Positions 1,408 to 27,978 of a stretch of DNA of 34,373 bases are shown here, one piece after another. Position 1 is the first letter of the stretch. Every line of letters starts with the position of its first letter. The position numbers and the translations under genes were made by a program. Below the pieces are notes generated by a model. That model searched no databases and was not told where the DNA came from. It saw nothing but the letters and a program-made list of their open reading frames with translations. Location of the stretch: the IMG/VR virus record IMGVR_UViG_3300021963_000386. One strand, given 5' to 3'. This stretch comes from a virus.

Positions 1408-3486
1408 TCAAAAGCCTCCTGCTGGTGGATTTGGCTTTTTCTGAGCACGCAAAGATTTCTTGATGGCTTCATCAATGGCTTGCTGCTGGCGAACGCTGAT
1501 GATTTTCTTGGCTCCGGAAGCGCCTGCAAGTGCTCCACCTGCTGCGCCTGCTGGACCTCCAGTGACTGCTCCAATGCCAGCGCCAACCAGCCCACCTGCA
1601 GCGGTGATTGCCTTCTTTGACAGTTCTGTTTGAAGGTTCAATGCCGTGGTGGCTGTGCCACTTGGGTTTGGGTCAAACGGCCGAAGAATGCGAGCACCAA
1701 CACGCAAAGTCTCCAGACGGTCTGCAAGCTCATCTCCAAGCAGTTGTTTTGTCTTTCCTCTGTACGGGGCCATCTGACGACTCAGAGTGTCGTCTGTGCC
1801 CTTCCAGACAACTGCACCACCCAGGGCAGTTTCAGTCGGATCAATGTTCTTTGAGATCATCTTCTCGACCAAATGTGCACGAACTTCAGCCAGGGCTTTT
1901 TTGCCAAGCTCTTGAAGCTCTGGAGTTGGCAGAGTTTCAAGTGTGCGGATGATGTTGTTGAATTGCGCGGTGTTCTTTGCCGCGTAGTTCACCAGCTTGT
2001 CTGGCAACACATCCAATGCCACTGCGCGATTTACACCCTCTGGGCCGCTGATATCCAAAATTTGCGCCAAGCCCTTTGGGTCTTCAAAAATGGTGCGGTA
2101 CTGCGTTCGCTTGGCTCTTGCATCCATGTAAACATCAGAAGGCAAGACGGAAAGCACATCCTCGTCAATGGCGTCTTTAACACCACCAACTGCATTTTTG
2201 GTTTGAGGCTTAGTTGGGTCGAACAGCCGATTAGCCTCTTGTCTGATGCGCTCCGCAGTCTGAGCATCAATGTCGGCCAAGTTGCCTTTCTTGTCCATGA
2301 CGCCAAGACGCACAAGCTCGTTTCTCATGTCACGAGCAACTGTTCGACCGTCGCCCTTGAAGTTGGCCGGTTCGTTGAGATAGGCTTTCAGACGGTCTAA
2401 GCGAATGCCGCCTTGGCCAGCCGCAGCTTCATTGGCCTGCGTGTACAGACTCTTGATCTGGTCGTTGTACCAGTTCTGATAGCCCTCCAAAGGAGCGCTG
2501 ATGGCCTCACCACGCATGAGTGGTGTTGCCCCTGCAGTGCCACCAGTGTCGCGCTGAATGGCCGACGCATATTCGGCCAAGCGCTGAGATTCCAGATCAA
2601 GCTGTTCGCGCATGGGTTGCGCGCCTTCGAGCTTGCTGACCATGATCTCGGTTTGGATCTGATTCTTGTCGCCTGTGCGAGCCCCAAGCCTGCGAGACTC
2701 TGGAGGAATTCCAATGGCATCCAGAACAAGATCGCGCTTACCCGTGGTTGCAACATCAAGCGGTGCTGCTGATGGTCTGGCACGAACGCCAGGATCGGCC
2801 AACACATCCAGCGGAGCCGCCTTCATTGCCATTGCTGGCACAGTTGTTTGCACTGGCGCTGCTTCAGTCGGCGCAATCATTCCGCGCACAGCAGTGGTGG
2901 CCGCCTGCACTGGCTTAACAACGGCCTGTCCTGCCGCCTGTGCGGCCTGCTGGGTGGCTGCTGCGCCACGCCGAGCTGTGGCTTGCACGATAGGCGCAGC
3001 CAGCCTGGTTGCCTGGACCAACTGGCCAGGCGCAGCAACCACCGGCAAAACAGGAGGAACTGCTGTTGCCAAGAACTGTGCAGCAGACTGTGTCATTTCT
3101 TGGCCTGCTGGAGTGCTGGGCTGAAATGGTGCTGAAAATGCCTGTGCACCTCTGGCCGCTGCTTGCTCAACTGCTTTGGCCGCTTCAGCAGTGCCAAACC
3201 TCCCACCAAGAATTTCCTGTGCCAAACCTCCAACAGTACCGCCAACCGTGCCAATAAGGCCAGCAACAGACCCTGGGCCAAGTGCCAATGCTGTCTCGCC
3301 TGCCCCAATTAGTTGCTGGCCAAGTGTTGGCGTAGTTGGTGGCGGTGCAATCTGCGCCTGTGTGGTCGCCGTGGTCTCTTGAGCCTTTGCAAACTGATAT
3401 GCCTGGGCAACAGTGTCGAACTCAGGAGTTCCTTGCTTGTCAGCGTTCTTGACAATCCAGGCTGCATACTCTTGTGCGGTTGCCAT
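1408..3486 (-). CDS. Internal virion / DNA-ejection protein (P22 gp16 position), 692 aa
   Basis: ORF-track ORF. It is the last of three Ala/Gln/Gly-rich genes between the needle-like gene and the tailspike, the same order as P22 7-20-16. It has a TAAATG junction with the upstream gene and a C-terminal glycine-zipper segment GGLVGAGIGAVTGGPAGAAGGALAGASGA. Confidence 0.6.
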   Translation of the reverse strand: MATAQEYAAWIVKNADKQGTPEFDTVAQAYQFAKAQETTATTQAQIAPPPTTPTLGQQLIGAGETALALGPGSVAGLIGTVGGTVGGLAQEILGGRFGTAEAAKAVEQAAARGAQAFSAPFQPSTPAGQEMTQSAAQFLATAVPPVLPVVAAPGQLVQATRLAAPIVQATARRGAAATQQAAQAAGQAVVKPVQAATTAVRGMIAPTEAAPVQTTVPAMAMKAAPLDVLADPGVRARPSAAPLDVATTGKRDLVLDAIGIPPESRRLGARTGDKNQIQTEIMVSKLEGAQPMREQLDLESQRLAEYASAIQRDTGGTAGATPLMRGEAISAPLEGYQNWYNDQIKSLYTQANEAAAGQGGIRLDRLKAYLNEPANFKGDGRTVARDMRNELVRLGVMDKKGNLADIDAQTAERIRQEANRLFDPTKPQTKNAVGGVKDAIDEDVLSVLPSDVYMDARAKRTQYRTIFEDPKGLAQILDISGPEGVNRAVALDVLPDKLVNYAAKNTAQFNNIIRTLETLPTPELQELGKKALAEVRAHLVEKMISKNIDPTETALGGAVVWKGTDDTLSRQMAPYRGKTKQLLGDELADRLETLRVGARILRPFDPNPSGTATTALNLQTELSKKAITAAGGLVGAGIGAVTGGPAGAAGGALAGASGAKKIISVRQQQAIDEAIKKSLRAQKKPNPPAGGF

Positions 3487-5169
3487 TTAGCGACCTCCGC
3501 GAAGGATTGCATCTGCTTGAGACATGACGCTTGCTGGCGTGGCCGCTGGTGCCGCTGCTGGTGCAGCAGTAGTCGGTATCTGGCCAACAGCCTGCTGTCG
3601 TCGTTCTTCTGCGATCTGCGCTGGTGAACGATACTTTTGCGACACATCACCAACAATGCGCTGAGCAAAGTCGTTAAATGTCTCGCCAGGTTTTGCTGCG
3701 TAGTCGCCAGCAATGAATGAGCCCTTTGCACGGGTCAACAGGCCATTATTCTGAGATAGCCAGTCTGTTTTGGCATTGTTGATTGCCGAGTCAATATCCT
3801 GCAGCTTTGCAGAGCCACGCAGAAATGACGCCAAGGTGGCAGCGTTGGCGTTCTCAGGAGGAATGCCCTTCAGTGCCAGCTCAATGTCCTTGTCGGTCGC
3901 AACTCCAGGCGGCAGCGACTTGATAGCCACTGAATTTCTAACCCTAGTGTATTCGTTTCTGATTTGTGTCCAGGCATCTTGTGAACCAGTAGCTTTCGCC
4001 AGCCACTCTGTGGCAGATGTCAACGCGCCCTTGCCGCCTTCTGCAGCCTCAATCCGCTTTGCAAGATCGTTGTATTGCGTCGCTGCTTGCTTTGAAGTTG
4101 ACGCCAAAGTGGCCGACTCGTTAATCAGCTTCCTGGCCTCTGGCGGGATTTCAGTTAGTCGTGCCTGAATGCTGGACATTTTCTCTGCGACCGTGGCCGC
4201 AGTGGTCTGCCTATCAAGATTTAGCTTTGCAGCCCGATCATTGATCTGACTTTGCAGATTCTTGATATTCCAAGTTTTTTCATTAAGTCCAGCTTGTGCC
4301 AATTGCTCGGCAAATTTAGCCTTGACTGCTGCTTCATCTGCCTCACTTGCTGCCTTGCCAATCCTGGTGGCAACAGTGCCTTCAGCGACACGAGCATCTG
4401 CGAACGCCTTAGCGGCCAACGCTTTTTTCTCTTCTACTTCAGCCTCTTTTAATTGTGTGGCCAACTGCCTTTGAATTGCCACATCTGGCTCTGCCTCAAG
4501 TTTTGCGCGAAGTTCTTGCACCTTGAGCTGTGACTCAGTGACCGCTGTGTTTGCAGCAGCAGTGATTCGTTTCAGCTCTTCTGGCTCTCTGGCCGCAGTC
4601 CTACGCTCTGCTCTTACAGCGGTAATTCCCTTGTACCAGTCTTCGCCAAACGTGCCAGCCCCAAGCGACTCCACAAGCCTTGCGGCTTGATTTGGGTCTT
4701 GGTTTGCAATGGTCAGAATGTCTTGGAATGCACGCTTCTGGCCAGGGTCGGTCTCAGCGTTGATGCGCTCTTGAATCAGCGTCTTCGCTGTTTCAGGATT
4801 GGCCTCAAATGCCAGCAGCACCTGCGATGTGAATCTCTTCGATGAGTCGAGCCTTTCCTTGCTCATGTTCTCGCCGACCAGCTTCAAGGCATCAAACTGC
4901 TGCTTGTTCGCGCCGACCAGCAAAGGTTGCAGTTCTTCGAACGTGCGCTCGGCTGCTGGCTTTGCAAAGAACGAGTTAAGGTTAGACTGGAACTGACGTT
5001 GCTGTGCCTGCGCGGCTTGTAGTTGCTGCGCCTCCATAGCACGCTTCTGCCTTGCGACCTCGAGTTCTTCTAGGCCAGCACCAAGTTTGACTCCGCTGAT
5101 TGCTGCCTCAAACGGGCTTTGAACCTCAACTGCGTAGTTGATCGGCTGTTGTAGTGGATTGATTGCCAT
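3487..5169 (-). CDS. Internal virion / DNA-ejection protein (P22 gp20 position), 560 aa
   Basis: ORF-track ORF. AAGGA precedes the ATG by 6 nt. The sequence is a long coiled-coil-like Ala/Gln/Glu/Lys-rich stretch. Assignment rests on synteny with the P22 ejection genes. Confidence 0.6.
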   Translation of the reverse strand: MAINPLQQPINYAVEVQSPFEAAISGVKLGAGLEELEVARQKRAMEAQQLQAAQAQQRQFQSNLNSFFAKPAAERTFEELQPLLVGANKQQFDALKLVGENMSKERLDSSKRFTSQVLLAFEANPETAKTLIQERINAETDPGQKRAFQDILTIANQDPNQAARLVESLGAGTFGEDWYKGITAVRAERRTAAREPEELKRITAAANTAVTESQLKVQELRAKLEAEPDVAIQRQLATQLKEAEVEEKKALAAKAFADARVAEGTVATRIGKAASEADEAAVKAKFAEQLAQAGLNEKTWNIKNLQSQINDRAAKLNLDRQTTAATVAEKMSSIQARLTEIPPEARKLINESATLASTSKQAATQYNDLAKRIEAAEGGKGALTSATEWLAKATGSQDAWTQIRNEYTRVRNSVAIKSLPPGVATDKDIELALKGIPPENANAATLASFLRGSAKLQDIDSAINNAKTDWLSQNNGLLTRAKGSFIAGDYAAKPGETFNDFAQRIVGDVSQKYRSPAQIAEERRQQAVGQIPTTAAPAAAPAATPASVMSQADAILRGGR

Positions 5170-5178
5170 GAGTCGTCC

Positions 5179-5910
5179 TTAGAAGTAAGCCCCAAGGTCT
5201 TGATTTCCGTAGGCCAAGCCGGTGCCAAAACCTGAGCCGCCAAGTGCCGTCTGTGAAAATGCTGCCTGTAGTCCACCAAAGCCACCGCCACCACCACCAG
5301 CCCTCATGCCAGCCATCTGAGCTGGAATATTCAAGAGTTGGCCATAGGCTTTGGCCTCTCCCAGCTCGCCACCAGCACGGGCTGCGCCCTGCTGGGCCAG
5401 TAGATTGCTGATGTTGGAGCCTGTCTCCATGCCTGCAGCGCCGACACCGGCAGCAGACCGCTGGCCCAACGTAGTCATGCCGCCAAGACGTCCGTATTGC
5501 TGCTCGATGAGGCTGGACAGAAGCTGTGGCCGGAACTGAGCCAGTGCGGCCTGGATGTTGCCACCACGCAGCCCACCAGTGGCAGAGGCACGCTGCAACA
5601 GGGCTTCCTCGCCCTGTCCGGCAAGTGCTTGGAATGTCTCTCCACCTCGGATGCGCTCAATGGCCGCCTGCTCTGCTTCTGGGCCTTGCAGGCCAAGCAG
5701 CGCCTGCTGCTGAGCCAGTGCTGGAAGGCCTGCCTCTTGGTAAGGCTTGAGCAAGGCCTGCAAGGCATCAAACTGCCTGCGCTGCTCTGCCATGCCAGCT
5801 TCTGCTGCTCCTGCTTGAATACCTGCGGCCTCGCTTGCTGCATCGGCCTGCATCATGCCGCCGATCAGTTGAGAGCCTCCAACGATTAAGCCAGTTACTG
5901 GATCAGGCAT
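5179..5910 (-). CDS. Internal virion / DNA-ejection protein (P22 gp7 position), 243 aa
   Basis: The track ORF 5179..5985 is trimmed to ATG 5910, which follows AAGGAG with a 7-nt spacer. The longer start would overlap the upstream gene by 83 nt. The protein is Gly/Ala/Gln-rich with a C-terminal GGGGGGFGG tract. Confidence 0.55.
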   Translation of the reverse strand: MPDPVTGLIVGGSQLIGGMMQADAASEAAGIQAGAAEAGMAEQRRQFDALQALLKPYQEAGLPALAQQQALLGLQGPEAEQAAIERIRGGETFQALAGQGEEALLQRASATGGLRGGNIQAALAQFRPQLLSSLIEQQYGRLGGMTTLGQRSAAGVGAAGMETGSNISNLLAQQGAARAGGELGEAKAYGQLLNIPAQMAGMRAGGGGGGFGGLQAAFSQTALGGSGFGTGLAYGNQDLGAYF

Positions 5911-24086: not shown

Positions 24087-24114
24087 AATGGGCAACTACC
24101 AAAAGGAGACGGGC

Positions 24115-25146
24115 ATGAAGATACCCGAGTCAGAGCATACCATCCAGGCGCTGATTGACAAAGCGCACGAAGCAAAAGCTGAGCAGCCAAGGGGCCACAT
24201 GGGCTGCAGCCAGCTTGGCCACGCATGCGACCGCTGGCTGTGGCTGTCGTTTCGCTGGGCTGTGCAGTCAAAGTTCCCTGGCCGCATCCTGCGTTTGTTC
24301 CGCAGGGGCCAGCTCGAGGAGGCCAACATCATCAGCGACCTGCGAGCCATTGGCATGGACATTCGCAGCACATCAGGCAAGCAGACCAGGGTAGACCTTG
24401 GCTGCCATGTGTCCGGCAGCCTGGACGCCATCATCGAGTCTGGCGTGCCAGAAGCGCCCAAGAAGCGCCATGTGGCCGAGTTCAAGACGCACAGCAAGAA
24501 GTCATTTGATGACCTGGTGAAAGAAGGCGTGGAGAAGTCCAAGCCCGAGCATTTTGTGCAGATGCAGCTCTACATGCACGGCACCAAGATCGACCGTGCC
24601 TTTTATCTGGCTGTCTGCAAGGACGATGACCGTATCCACACCGAGCGAGTGCGTTACGACAAAGAAGTGGCCGAGAAGTACATCCAGCGAGGCCACAGGC
24701 TGGCCACAGAGGATCGGATGCCGCCACCGATCAGCACAGACCCGAGCTGGTATCAGTGCAAGTTTTGCGATGCGCACGAGTTCTGCCACAGCACAAAGAC
24801 AACCAAGCATGTGAACTGCCGCACCTGTGCACACAGCACGTCCACCAAGGCCAGCGAGTGGCACTGCGCCAAGTGGGATGCTGTGATTCCAGTGGATGCC
24901 CAGCGCACTGGATGTGAAGGACATGTCCTACATCCTGATCTGGTGGCCTGGCAGCGCAAGGACGGGCCAGACGAGTGGACGGCTGTTTATGAGATCAATG
25001 GCACGAATGTGGCCAACGGAGACCCTGAGCAAGAAGGCGTGTTCAGCTCCAAGGAGCTGCTTGCAAACGCTGCTGCCTGTGCGGATAAGGGCTGGACTCA
25101 ACTGCATGATCTGCGCAAGCAGTTTGGTGGGAGGGTGGTGGGTTGA
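24115..25146 (+). CDS. Cas4/RecB-like PD-(D/E)xK exonuclease with CX2CX5C cluster and an extra Cys/His-rich C-terminal domain, 343 aa
   Basis: ATG 24115 follows AAGGAG with a 6-nt spacer; the track start at 24088 is also possible. The nuclease motifs are GSLDAII ... VAEFKTH ... QMQLYM. YQCKFCDAHEFC is the CX2CX5C cluster. The tail contains NCRTCAHS...HCAKW...GCEGHVLH. Confidence 0.75.
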   Translation: MKIPESEHTIQALIDKAHEAKAEQPRGHMGCSQLGHACDRWLWLSFRWAVQSKFPGRILRLFRRGQLEEANIISDLRAIGMDIRSTSGKQTRVDLGCHVSGSLDAIIESGVPEAPKKRHVAEFKTHSKKSFDDLVKEGVEKSKPEHFVQMQLYMHGTKIDRAFYLAVCKDDDRIHTERVRYDKEVAEKYIQRGHRLATEDRMPPPISTDPSWYQCKFCDAHEFCHSTKTTKHVNCRTCAHSTSTKASEWHCAKWDAVIPVDAQRTGCEGHVLHPDLVAWQRKDGPDEWTAVYEINGTNVANGDPEQEGVFSSKELLANAAACADKGWTQLHDLRKQFGGRVVG

Positions 25147-25190
25147 TGCTGCGTGACTACCAACAGCGAACCATTGACCAGCTTTATGCG
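25146..25190 (+). pseudogene. Relic 5' end of the helicase gene (MLRDYQQRTIDQLYA), now fused in frame to the HNH ORF
   Basis: ATG 25146 has a TGATG overlap with the nuclease stop. These 15 codons are a diverged copy of helicase codons ELREYQSRALDMLYA at 25907..25951. Both copies end in TATGCGT. Confidence 0.5.
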
Positions 25191-25909
25191 TTACAATGCA
25201 AATATCCTCATAAACTCAAGGACATTTGCATTATGGGCAAGCCAATCATCAGCATGGTCGGACTTAAGTCTCACAGGTGGACTGTTGTGTCTGAAGCGCA
25301 AAAACCATCTGGCGCATCACAAACTGGAAAGTTTTGGAACTGTGTTTGTGAGTGCGGCACACAGCGCGTCGTTTATGGCGAAACCATCAGGAGTGGGAGC
25401 AGCAAGTCTTGCGGTTGTTTGAAAGCAGAGAAAAGCGCGGTCGCCATGAAAGAAATGAGGCTGCGCCAATCTGGTTCTTTGCAAGACCGGTTTTTTTCTC
25501 GGTTTGTCAAACTTGAAAATGGTTGTTGGCAATGGAGAGCGCACACCGACAAAGATGGATATGGAATCTTGCCCGGCGCAAATCAAAACACAAGATCACA
25601 CCGCCTATCGTATGAGATTCACATTGGTGAGATTCCTGAAGGATTGATTGTCTGCCACCACTGCGACAACCCAGGATGCGTTAACCCTGACCATCTTTTT
25701 GTCGGCACACAGAAAGACAACGCACATGACGCATTGCAAAAAGGTAGGCACTACATTGGAGAAAAAAATGGTAGATCAAAACTGACTGCAGAGAACGCCA
25801 AAGAAATATTGAATTCTGACATGAATGGCCAACAACTGGCAGATAAGTTTGGTGTCACCAGATCAACAATCAACAATGTCAGAAGAGGCGTGACGTGGAA
25901 AAAATAGAA
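25191..25909 (+). mobile_element. Putative free-standing homing-endonuclease cassette inserted at the helicase 5' end
   Basis: An AT-rich segment is bounded by two diverged copies of the same helicase N-terminal coding sequence. It contains only the HNH gene. Confidence 0.45.
25233..25907 (+). CDS. HNH_3-type homing endonuclease with a C-terminal HTH, 224 aa (the track ORF extends to 25143)
   Basis: The core motif is GYGILPGANQNTRSHRLSYEIHIGEIPEGLIVCHHCDNPGCVNPDHLFVGTQKDNAHD. The upstream Cys motif is WNCVCECG...SCGC. The C-terminal HTH-like segment is KLTAENAKEIL...LADKFGVTRSTINNVRRGVTW. The region is visibly AT-rich. Confidence 0.8.
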   Translation: MGKPIISMVGLKSHRWTVVSEAQKPSGASQTGKFWNCVCECGTQRVVYGETIRSGSSKSCGCLKAEKSAVAMKEMRLRQSGSLQDRFFSRFVKLENGCWQWRAHTDKDGYGILPGANQNTRSHRLSYEIHIGEIPEGLIVCHHCDNPGCVNPDHLFVGTQKDNAHDALQKGRHYIGEKNGRSKLTAENAKEILNSDMNGQQLADKFGVTRSTINNVRRGVTWKK

Positions 25910-27511
25910 TTGCGAGAGTACCAGTCTCGCGCATTGGACATGCTGTATGCGTGGTTTGAGAAAAATTCGACAGGCCATCCAGTATTGAACATGCCAGGCG
26001 GGTCTGGCAAGTCCGTAGTGATTGCGTCGCTTGCCAAAGATGCGCTGCAAAACTGGCCTGAGACGCGAATTTTGATGTTGGTGCACTCCAAAGAGTTGAT
26101 TCTTCAAAACGCTGACAAACTGCGCAAGCTGTGGCCCGGTGCGCCTCTTGGCATTTACAGCGCCAGCGTGGGCAAGCGTCAATTGGAGGAGCCAATCACA
26201 TACGCTGGCATTGGGTCTGTGGCCAAACGCGCCAAGCAAATCGGGCACATTGACTTGTGCATCATTGACGAGGTGCACGCCGTATCAACCACTGAGAACG
26301 GCATTTACCGCAAACTGATCGCCGACCTTCTGGAGATCAACCCGGACATGCGGATTGTGGGCCTGAGTGCCAGCCCGTACCGTCTTGGTCAAGGGCTAAT
26401 AACCGAAGGGCCAACCGCAATCTTTTCCGAGATTTTGGAGCCGGTGAGCATTGAGGAATTGGTTTTCAAAACCCACCTTGTGCCGCTGCGCTCAAAAATC
26501 ACCACGCACAAGCTGGAGACGGACGGACTGCATAAGCGCCAGGGAGAATACATTGCGTCTGAAATGGAAGCCAAGTTCAACACCGATGACCATAACCAAG
26601 CTGTGGTGCAAGAAATCATTGAGAAGGCAAGCAGCCGTAAACACTGGCTGATCTTCTGCTCCGGTGTCGCGCACTCTGAGGCCGTGGCTAAATGCCTGCG
26701 TGCTGCCGGTATTGCTGCAGAAGCCCTGGACGCAACGCATAGCAAGTCGGAGCGAGAGCGCAAGCTATCTGACTTTGAGTCTGGGCGTATGCGTGCCATT
26801 TGCTCGGTTGGAATTTTGACGACTGGCTACGACTTCCCTGCGCTGGACTGCATTGCATTTTTGCGGTCCACGATGTCACCAGGGCTTTACCTGCAAATGG
26901 CCGTGCGAGGCATGAGGCCGCACGCTGGCAAGGCCGACTGCCTGGTGCTGGACTTTGCTGGGGTGGTGGCCACGCACGGTCCGATCACCGCAGTGCAGCC
27001 TCCCAAGAAGGCAGGAGATGGCAATGGCGAGGCACCAGTGAAGGTCTGCGACAACTGCGGAGAGTTGTGCGCCATCTCTGTTGCTGCCTGCCCTGCTTGC
27101 GGCCATCCGTTCCCCGAGCCGGAGCGCAAGAAACTGGAGCTTCGAAACGACGACATCATGGGCCTGGAAGGCAAAGACCTAGAGGTCACTGCCTGGAACT
27201 GGCGCAGGCACATCAGCAAGGCCAGCGGCAAAGAGATGTTGTCCTGCACTTATTACGGTAGTCTGTCCGACAAGCCGATCATTGAATATCTGCCTGTGCT
27301 GCACGATGGCTATGCTGGGCAGCGGGCGATGCAGCAGCTTTTCAACATGGCCAACTCGTCGGGGGCGCATTTGGCCGAGGCCGAGCGCATGAGCGATAGC
27401 GAGGGGCTGGACTACCTAGCCGTGCAGATGAGCAACAGCCAGCCGCCCAAGGCCATCGAATACAAAATGGATGGGAAGTTTCACCGTGTTTTGAAGAGGA
27501 GTTGGGAGTGA
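25895..27511 (+). CDS. SF2 (DEAD/DEAH-type) DNA helicase with a C-terminal zinc ribbon, 538 aa
   Basis: The motifs are LREYQ, a Walker A MPGGSGKS, a DEVH box (IIDEVHA), SASP, and the C-terminal CDNCGELCAISVAACPACGH. The start is GTG 25895 (GAGG, 6-nt spacer), inside the HNH 3' end. TTG 25910 is an alternative start. Confidence 0.85.
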   Translation: MEKIELREYQSRALDMLYAWFEKNSTGHPVLNMPGGSGKSVVIASLAKDALQNWPETRILMLVHSKELILQNADKLRKLWPGAPLGIYSASVGKRQLEEPITYAGIGSVAKRAKQIGHIDLCIIDEVHAVSTTENGIYRKLIADLLEINPDMRIVGLSASPYRLGQGLITEGPTAIFSEILEPVSIEELVFKTHLVPLRSKITTHKLETDGLHKRQGEYIASEMEAKFNTDDHNQAVVQEIIEKASSRKHWLIFCSGVAHSEAVAKCLRAAGIAAEALDATHSKSERERKLSDFESGRMRAICSVGILTTGYDFPALDCIAFLRSTMSPGLYLQMAVRGMRPHAGKADCLVLDFAGVVATHGPITAVQPPKKAGDGNGEAPVKVCDNCGELCAISVAACPACGHPFPEPERKKLELRNDDIMGLEGKDLEVTAWNWRRHISKASGKEMLSCTYYGSLSDKPIIEYLPVLHDGYAGQRAMQQLFNMANSSGAHLAEAERMSDSEGLDYLAVQMSNSQPPKAIEYKMDGKFHRVLKRSWE

Positions 27512-27978
27512 GAGGCCGCGCCCTGCCGCACTATGGCAAGCTGGGTGTGGCCAACCTGCCCAGCGAGGTCAAGGCCATCTGGTACAGCCGGCACATTGAG
27601 CCAGAGCCATGCGAGCCGATTGATTTCTGGTGGCCGACGCAGACTGATCCTGATCTGTGGATCAGGCAGGACTTTGCGCGCCGCCTGGTGGCCATCACAC
27701 CGCTGACCGAGCAGGAGGAGCAAGCTGTCATCCTGTGCGTGCTGGACAACCACACGCTGCGCGAGGCAGGCGAGGTGATGGGCCGCACGCAAGAGCGTGT
27801 GCGCCAGATTCTGATGAAGGCAATGCGCAGGTTTCGCAAGCACCAGTCAGAGCTGACTGGCGTGCCGATGTGGGAATTGGACGACAGGGTGATGCCCTGG
27901 TCTTTTTGGAAGTACGAGCAAAGGAGACGACATGACCACCAGACCACCAGAGCCAGAGTTCCTGATTCAATGGCGTGA
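27508..27978 (+). CDS. Sigma-70 region-4-like HTH protein (candidate transcription regulator), about 156 aa
   Basis: LTEQEEQAVILCVLDNHTLREAGEVMGRTQERVRQILMKAMRRFRK matches the sigma70 region 4 pattern. The start is uncertain: GTG 27508 has a GTGA overlap and follows GAGGAG, while the track uses TTG 27502. Confidence 0.65.
   Translation: MRGRALPHYGKLGVANLPSEVKAIWYSRHIEPEPCEPIDFWWPTQTDPDLWIRQDFARRLVAITPLTEQEEQAVILCVLDNHTLREAGEVMGRTQERVRQILMKAMRRFRKHQSELTGVPMWELDDRVMPWSFWKYEQRRRHDHQTTRARVPDSMA

Follow-up and report, generated by a model that had tools for sequence, protein, structure and literature searches.

We analyzed a 34,373-nucleotide stretch of viral DNA (IMG/VR virus record IMGVR_UViG_3300021963_000386; hereafter the window, meaning this whole stretch), in which a gene for an HNH homing endonuclease lies between a nuclease gene and a helicase gene. 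An earlier note, made from the sequence by itself, had proposed that the HNH gene arrived together with the 5' end of a donor helicase gene and left the resident 5' end behind as an in-frame relic. We found that a block of about 1.8 kb (25192 to ~26936-26992), consisting of the HNH gene and about 350 codons of a foreign helicase allele (type A), replaced the resident DNA, and that the first 46 nt of the phage's own helicase (type B) were kept as a stub in front of it. The arrival with a donor helicase 5' end and the resident stub were both upheld, but the in-frame fusion of the relic to the HNH gene was not conserved among relatives. The locus contains the following features.

24088-25146, + strand: gene for a Cas4-domain (PD-(D/E)XK) exonuclease, taken from the list of open reading frames and matching PHROG 1990 'Cas4-domain exonuclease' (E = 1e-99).
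25146-25191, + strand: relic left by the resident type B helicase, comprising its codons 1-15 and 1 further nt, encoding MLRDYQQRTIDQLYA, identified by homology.
25192-25232, + strand: 5' untranslated leader of the HNH cassette with a conserved hairpin, identified from the fold and an inverted repeat.
25233-25907, + strand: free-standing HNH homing-endonuclease gene, predicted native reading frame of 224 aa, identified from Pfam, PHROG and homologues.
25881-25909, + strand: 3' end of the cassette, re-equipping the helicase with a ribosome-binding site (RBS; AGAAGAGG), the start codon GTG at 25895 and the codons EKIE, identified from conservation.
25895-27511, + strand: chimeric superfamily 2 helicase with ResIII/DEAD and Helicase_C domains and a C-terminal zinc ribbon, identified from Pfam, allele typing and sliding identity.
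25910-26936, + strand: co-converted donor type A tract in the helicase, ~343 codons, identified from identity, informative sites and the GC content of third codon positions (GC3).
26936-26992, + strand: right-hand crossover interval, identified from the switch in informative sites.
26993-27511, + strand: 3' part of the helicase, resident type B-like, identified from identity, informative sites and GC3.

The TGATG overlap, the ATG codons at 25146 and 25233 and the GTG at 25895 are all where the earlier note had placed them. The nuclease TGA (25144-25146) overlaps the relic ATG at 25146 as TGATG, and the frame opened by this ATG (25146-25907) comprises 253 aa, namely MLRDYQQRTIDQLYA, a linker, the HNH_3 domain and a C-terminal helix-turn-helix (HTH), with the ATG at 25233 inside it. 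The helicase open reading frame (ORF), starting at GTG 25895, overlaps the HNH stop codon by 13 nt.

We gathered 80 loci around helicase homologues from viral contigs, together with loci found via individual proteins. The helicases could be grouped by their N-termini into type B, which reads MLRDYQQRTIDQLYAWFEAG..GNPCLVLPTGSGKSH, and type A, which reads M(Q)LREYQ(S/T)RALDMLYAWFEKN..GHPVLNMPGGSGKS. An intact type B helicase starting MLRDYQQRTIDQLYAWFEAG, without an HNH gene, was found in 28 related loci. The phages with the nearest upstream nucleases (L062-L075; 92-98% aa identity) all lack the HNH gene and carry an intact type B helicase, and in L068-L071 and L075, whose nuclease is 93% identical to that of the window, the helicase starts at the TGATG overlap. 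This is the HNH-less arrangement that the earlier note had expected of relatives. Type A alleles that lack a homing-endonuclease gene (HEG) start directly with M-LREYQ or MQ-LREYQ. The window combines the two types, with a type B stub (15/15 aa) and a working helicase that starts as type A.

The two N-terminal segments of the window lie 760 nt apart and have 28/45 nt (62% identity) and 9/15 aa in common. This agrees with the similarity counted by hand in the earlier note and is far above shuffled expectation, since 28/45 nt was reached by 0/100,000 shuffles and by no other 45-mer on the + strand of the window. The motif TATGCGT is present in each copy, as had been claimed. A repeat finder recovered the leader hairpin but missed this pair, whose 62% identity is below its sensitivity. 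The upstream copy is the resident helicase 5' end. Its 15 residues are all identical to the helicase start of L001 and of the 28 type B loci, and its nucleotide sequence matches the 5' ends of intact, HNH-less type B genes (L072, L078, L068 and others) at 41-45 of 47 nt. BLAST alignments to L068/L070 stop at 25188-25191, and type B homology ends after TATGCGT. Across loci, the relic variants differ from the type B consensus by 37 synonymous and 8 non-synonymous codon changes. This suggested that the relic has been captured repeatedly from working type B genes and is not one neutrally decaying fossil.

To the right of the relic, similarity changes sides twice. Compared with the backbone relatives L068/L070, the window is 90-97% identical up to 25191, unalignable over the HNH cassette (25192-25909), 58-74% identical up to ~26950-27000 and 83-94% identical over ~27000-27505. 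Compared with HNH-bearing phages on other backbones (L028/L029/L010), identity is low up to 25191 except in the relic, 88-98% over the HNH cassette, 83-92% up to ~26950-27000 and 64-73% over ~27000-27505. At the level of allele types, the tract 25910-26936 is 83-94% identical in nucleotides to type A alleles versus 56-78% to type B, while 26993-27511 is 85-93% identical to the type B phages L062-L076 versus 55-73% to most type A alleles. In a codon alignment, 327 sites told four backbone relatives apart from three of donor type. The window followed donor and backbone at 241:16 of these sites up to 26936 and at 5:43 after 26992 (Fisher p = 2.8e-33). The left edge of the foreign tract coincides with the end of the cassette to the nucleotide.

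Base composition changes along the same stretch. GC content is ~58% before the locus, 41-50% over 25150-25970, 50-57% until ~26850 and ~60% thereafter. GC3 is 0.72 in the nuclease, 0.476 in the HNH gene, 0.637 in the donor part of the helicase (25895-26935), 0.74 in its backbone part (26993-27511) and 0.74-0.78 in flanking genes. The shift that the earlier note had predicted was therefore found, but not the step in codon usage that it placed near codon 170: codons 1-170 have a GC3 of 0.641 and codons 171-347 one of 0.633, and the step lies at ~350-365. A co-conversion tract is thus present as had been suggested, but it spans ~1.05 kb (~350 codons) and not ~170 codons.

The interval 26936-26992 is the first stretch of high similarity between types A and B. 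Over the first kb the two types are only 56-78% identical, which, together with the conserved block at the breakpoint, plausibly explains both the length of the tract and the recurrence of the breakpoint, as the same right breakpoint was found in L092, L012 and L013. In other endonuclease-bearing loci, the switch from A to B occurs elsewhere, at ~450-500 nt in L064 and at ~1300 nt in L014. Two contigs are particularly close to the window. L097 (ERZ27296344) is 99.98% identical. L093 (ERZ27296389 k141_1784882), from a sister sample, is 100% identical from 21000 to ~26999, 57-83% identical over 27000-27500 and 94% identical thereafter. In the window and L093, from sister samples, a backbone that is otherwise identical carries two variants of the helicase 3' end, and this switch between near-identical genomes suggested that exchange at this breakpoint is recent.

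To characterize the endonuclease, we compared the protein with family profiles and homologues. It matches HNH_3 (Pfam PF13392; E = 2.8e-12; 46.5 bits, curated cut-off 24.8) over residues 152-193 of the 253-aa reading and profile positions 4-45 of 46, and it matches PHROG HNH endonuclease families with E values down to 7e-31. Three modules can be distinguished, an N-terminal Cys-rich module, the HNH_3 core (~25599-25724) and a weak C-terminal HTH (~25815-25895). In 16 homologues with identities down to 47%, residues C141, H142, C144, D145, P147, C149, N151, H154 and N163 are invariant and N146 is nearly so; the window copy has all these catalytic and zinc residues. The dN/dS ratio of the HNH gene was 0.06-0.10 against seven relatives (dS up to 1.9), which indicated that the gene is maintained by selection and is not a decayed remnant. 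A sequence search of the PDB with the HNH protein returned chance matches only (E ~0.7), so no solved structure is detectable by sequence. The best HNH match among relatives was 95% identical in amino acids (P0001/L028), and the best match to the helicase 5' part was 92% identical in nucleotides (L092).

The HNH gene has an ORF to itself, complete with Shine-Dalgarno sequence and stop codon, and its frame is not that of the helicase. An intron-borne endonuclease was considered and rejected, as an Rfam scan of 24800-26300 (threshold E <= 1, including group I/II introns) found no intron or other RNA family and returned one chance lncRNA match only. Among ~30 loci with an HNH gene of at least 64% aa identity and a contig extending past it, all have this helicase family immediately downstream. 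HNH-bearing loci were found on several backbones, and the presence or absence of the HNH gene at one locus is patchy. Inside the HNH ORF, 25471-25490 (+) forms a terminator-like hairpin followed by seven T; the count of such sites in the region is not above shuffles, and the conservation of this one is inseparable from that of the encoded SGSLQDRFFSRF motif.

A search of a large protein collection found 731 homologues, most of which are 224 aa long and start MGKP, corresponding to ATG 25233. The 253-aa in-frame reading is restricted to the window lineage, L093 and L028/L029. In L010, L019, L105 and L110 the relic frame stops ahead of the HNH ATG, and L006, L013, L023, L108, L113 and L114 have no relic, so that the relic is missing or its frame closed in most lineages. 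The predicted native HNH product is the 224-aa protein, and the 253-aa ORF and similar extended calls are, on this comparison, artefacts of the relic.

We then examined the leader between relic and HNH gene. The hairpin arms (25195-25208 and 25219-25232) pair with the Shine-Dalgarno sequence AAGGA (25218-25222) and abut the ATG. The inverted repeat is 14 nt long and 93% complementary, and the minimum free energy fold has z = -2.0. Across 16 cassettes, 87% of hairpin cells are paired versus 41-48% in slid controls, and three pairs have compensatory changes. The observed pairing was reached by 1/500 shuffles and the covariation by 7/500. In every lineage the 5' arm of the hairpin is traversed by an upstream ORF, either the nuclease or an ORF opened by the old helicase ATG; this ORF stops in the hairpin loop in most lineages and runs in frame into the HNH gene in the window lineage. 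This suggests that translation of the upstream ORF could unmask the HNH start by coupling. At the other end of the cassette, the stretch comprising AGAAGAGG, the start codon and the four codons before LREYQ is conserved in all loci with this HNH family (HNH-1), with ATG as the start codon in the L038 family. A scan for sigma-70 promoters and terminators gave nothing above shuffled expectation and no promoter for the cassette. The TACAAT at the cassette start has, by eye, no suitably spaced -35 element, and the fold of the helicase start region revealed no structure beyond shuffles (z = 0.16).

These observations bear on a different view of the relic, in which the 253-aa ORF is a real product with a functional 15-residue extension, or the relic ORF persists mainly because it encodes a leader peptide driving translation of the HNH gene. 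We regard this as unlikely. It would fit the relic being in frame with the HNH gene in the window, L093 and L028/L029, the translational coupling of the relic ATG to the nuclease stop, the passage of the upstream ORF through the hairpin in each lineage and the retention of the leader frame (..LQCKYS..) in variants with 0, 2 or 14 extra codons. The mostly synonymous changes in the relic could also be read this way, but they are equally explained by repeated capture from functional helicase genes. Against this view stand the length and MGKP start of most homologues and the lineages named above in which the relic frame is closed or the relic absent.

We next compared the left junction of the cassette among loci. 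In all HNH-1 loci the cassette starts (T)TACAATG. Relic-bearing loci read ..TATGCG/TTACAATG, with the slash marking the junction (window, L093, L008/L028/L029, L010, L019, L105-L107 and L110), and in other loci only ATG, ATGC, ATGCTG or ATGCTTGAGT is left before the cassette. In L038, L039, L041 and L077, the join lies within the 3' end of the nuclease gene, ~60 nt before the HNH ATG; the last ~27 codons of the L038-family nuclease have been replaced, and its ORF now ends in the cassette hairpin loop. When relic-bearing loci were compared with each other (L105 versus L107 included; ungapped junction comparisons with L010 and L019 were out of register and were excluded), the 200 nt upstream were 21-36% identical, the relic 73-93% and the HNH ORFs 75-95%. 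As the upstream DNA is unrelated and the relic similar, homology between these loci starts at the old helicase start codon. The junction of relic and cassette was therefore not made in this genome, as the earlier note had implied, but is older, being shared by many phages with unrelated upstream DNA. We infer that the junction travels with the cassette and that the relic is renewed from recipients. Simple microhomology was rejected as the origin of the HNH-1 left junction, because the sampled relic-less donors, TGATG/TTACAATG or TGATGC/TACAATG, do not fit TATGCG/TTACAATG. Another short stub, MKRHLLDIYA, was observed ~45 nt upstream of the HNH ATG in L104 and L115, before the same TTACAAT cassette start, and may derive from another helicase allele as a relic with an internal deletion.

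The gap between nuclease and helicase was found to carry other genes in other phages. These include a second HNH_3 gene (~40% identical), an Endonuclease_7-type gene, two GIY-YIG + NUMOD genes, one GIY-YIG + HTH gene, an unclassified ORF of 253 aa that has no Pfam match and in which an HNH-like motif is visible by eye, and small ORFs. At least six nuclease-type genes (two HNH_3, Endonuclease_7 and three GIY-YIG types) use the same few nucleotides before the helicase. The second HNH_3 and the Endonuclease VII cassettes also lie behind type B relics, which end ..YAW/ and ..YAWFD/, and for these two cassette families there is microhomology to relic-less forms, TGGTT and T(T/C)GATG. The relic ends of all three endonuclease families fall within 14 nt, inside TATGCGTGGTTCGA, which corresponds to helicase codons 14-18. 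L092, whose helicase is 92% and 87% identical to the two parts of the window's helicase, has an Endonuclease VII cassette instead of the HNH gene. A comparable arrangement was found in the cultured marine Vibrio phage 1.191.O (L095 2397-5160, MG592561), in which a 12-codon helicase-like stub, MFKLRYYQQDAE, is followed by an HNH gene (NVP1191O_63, 51% identical) and then by a helicase (NVP1191O_62) that starts MKLTARPYQEDA and has a diverged N-terminus. C5-cytosine and N6/N4 methyltransferases were also observed in this gap (L018 2022-3008, L083 2016-3008, L046 1107-1994 and L020 1284-2291), showing that it collects defence and counter-defence genes besides endonucleases. The helicase start is a crowded insertion hot spot, with at least six nuclease-type families and two methylase types.

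We consider it probable that the free-standing HNH_3 cassette (25192-25909) homed into the helicase 5' end with co-conversion, cleavage being a predicted activity. During co-infection, the HNH protein would make a break within the 5' coding region of a helicase allele that lacks the HNH gene, probably near codons 14-18 (TATGCGTGGTTCGA), and the break would be repaired from the HNH-bearing genome. The low identity between types A and B would push the right crossover to the first well-conserved block ~1.05 kb downstream, giving a long tract. The left junction may have originated in one-sided joining, either non-homologous or at microhomology. From that point on, the 46-nt relic would have served as the left homology arm, allowing entry into any type B start whatever lies upstream, and would be re-copied from each recipient. 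Harm to the host gene would be avoided as the cassette appears to give the helicase a new RBS, a start codon and four codons. Translation of the HNH gene would be kept low by the hairpin masking its Shine-Dalgarno sequence, and ribosomes arriving from the upstream ORF would open it.

If so, homing has left an unusually complete natural record in the window and its relatives, which include alleles of recipient and donor type, the resulting genome and a sister recombinant distinguished from it only past the breakpoint. The left end of the tract could be placed to within 1 nt and the right end to within ~60 nt. A selfish nuclease could in this way drag ~1 kb of an essential replication gene between phages and make a chimeric helicase. 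The relic ends would place the break near TATGCGTGGTTCGA, in codons 14-18 of type B helicases, which offers a testable target site.

Several points weigh against homing with co-conversion as the source of this arrangement. The exact donor is not among the sampled genomes. The HNH-1 left junction, TATGCG/TTACAATG, has no clean microhomology to sampled relic-less donors, with an overlap of at most 1 nt, and the relic may have come first and the deletions later, or the reverse. Both the target site and its placement close to the end of the relic are predictions, and so is immunity of the type A copy. Since the downstream type A copy keeps TATGCGTGGTTTGA, any immunity would need to rest on differences in the flanks. 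The relic breaks off at the junction, and 17/45 positions distinguish the type A copy from type B. Finally, the breakpoint at 26.94-26.99 kb occurs beside three different endonuclease families, and the A/B chimera could predate the arrival of the HNH gene, with endonucleases later swapped in front of it.

This recurrence, at what is also the first conserved block between A and B, would also fit ordinary modular recombination, in which the HNH gene is a passive or decaying passenger and the mosaic edges are patches of homology. These phages are generally mosaic, as seen in the presence or absence of a sigma-like gene at 27502-27978, and the cleavage activity of the HNH protein is a prediction. 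We nevertheless consider this explanation quite unlikely, as the left edge of the foreign tract coincides exactly with the cassette end, purifying selection on the HNH gene is strong and its regulatory hairpin is conserved, and the use of the same few nucleotides by at least six nuclease-type genes fits targeted breaks and not random mosaicism. A local tandem duplication of the helicase 5' end, followed by divergence and HNH insertion between the copies, would account for two copies of a 15-codon motif 760 nt apart that both contain TATGCGT, but it is scarcely credible, as the copies come from separate allele lineages (41-45 of 47 nt to type B; 83-94% to type A) and are only 62% identical, and the window contains no second copy of the remainder of the type A tract.

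Under the homing reading, the relic itself may be a working part of the mobile unit. The cassette would then sit inside the helicase gene at codons 15-18, with a replacement N-terminus on its right and a ~46-nt portable homology arm on its left, and three or more nuclease families unrelated to each other (two HNH_3 lineages and Endonuclease VII), together with the Vibrio phage, would have converged independently on one 14-nt site. We put this forward tentatively, as a possibility. If true, homing endonucleases would have, besides introns and inteins, a third means of residing inside an essential gene.

The locus probably represents a known process, intronless homing with co-conversion, in an unusually well resolved form, and its particular features vary a theme already known. 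For the homing endonucleases of phage T4, co-conversion, RBS-sequestering hairpins and one-sided homing with junctions at microhomology are established, and such hairpins and coupling to the upstream gene have been documented for I-TevI-III, segB and mobE (PMC2988022). The HNH gene of the window resembles the free-standing SegB, SegF, SegG and MobE genes of T-even phages ('intronless homing', marker exclusion) in that it lies between conserved genes and is missing in close relatives (PMC2988022, PMC2790892). The T-even endonucleases spread by double-strand-break repair and co-convert flanking markers, sometimes from a distant cut site, and MobE is likewise of HNH type and translationally coupled to its upstream gene (PMC2988022, PMC2790892). 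The present case differs from the T-even cases in the endonuclease (HNH_3 subfamily with an N-terminal Cys-rich module and a C-terminal HTH), in the hosts of the gene (small, ~34 kb, uncultured environmental phages), in that cleavage is a prediction, and in that the cassette overlaps its target gene, replaces its start codon and leaves an upstream stub.

One-sided homing, or illegitimate break repair, in which a non-homologous flank is joined at microhomology, was shown experimentally for T4 (Parker, Belisle and Belfort 1999, as described in PMC2988022). The present loci are similar in that three endonuclease families have junctions inside TATGCGTGGTTCGA, two of them with clear microhomology. 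That study, as described there, used an engineered laboratory td intron system, whereas the present junctions are natural footprints in metagenomic phages. In ICP1 vibriophages, homing-endonuclease genes lie at the boundaries of recombination tracts, termed 'HEG islands' (Barth, Dunham and Seed 2023, PMC10448857). There, as here, the endonuclease gene marks one edge of the tract, an essential 'cargo' allele is carried along and the distal boundary is not discrete (PMC10448857). Unlike in ICP1, where the endonucleases belong to other families (T5orf172 and others), the ends here are mapped to ~60 nt and both parental types have been sampled. A term search of PMC10448857 returned no description of a target-gene relic or of start-codon replacement.

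A further parallel is mobE in nrdA of Aeromonas phage Aeh1, an HNH gene inside an essential replication-related gene without an intron or intein, whose expression is damped by an RBS-sequestering hairpin, as predicted here (PMC2988022). Unlike in Aeh1, where both halves of nrdA are functional and reassemble, the upstream piece here is a non-functional stub of 15 codons, and a replacement N-terminus restores the downstream gene. In the literature searched, of which our coverage was incomplete, we found no description of replacement of the start of a target gene, of a retained 5' stub or of convergence of several families on one 14-nt site.

Further observations were made on relatives and neighbouring genes. 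A type B helicase homologue of 810 aa (P0233) contains an intein (Pfam PF14890), which is another mobile element in the same helicase family. Some helicase start annotations of relatives are wrong. In L001 (MW202867.1), the deposited helicase CDS (4058-5863) begins at a GTG placed too far upstream by ~200 nt; conservation puts the start at L001:4262 (MLRDYQQ..), and a small unannotated ORF (4027-4268) lies between nuclease and helicase. In Sphingomonas phage Eidolon (L094, MN734437), an unannotated HNH-like ORF at 3001-3486 is 38% identical over residues 3-172 and is located just downstream of the helicase, before the DNA polymerase III beta subunit gene. In the window, the helicase is immediately followed by the sigma-like gene at 27502-27978, which resembles sigma-70 region 4 (Pfam Sigma70_r4, E = 7e-11). 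This gene is an insertion or deletion among relatives, being absent from the nearest backbone relatives L068, L070, L092, L098, L099 and L101 and present in L001, L012, L014 and L096/L100.

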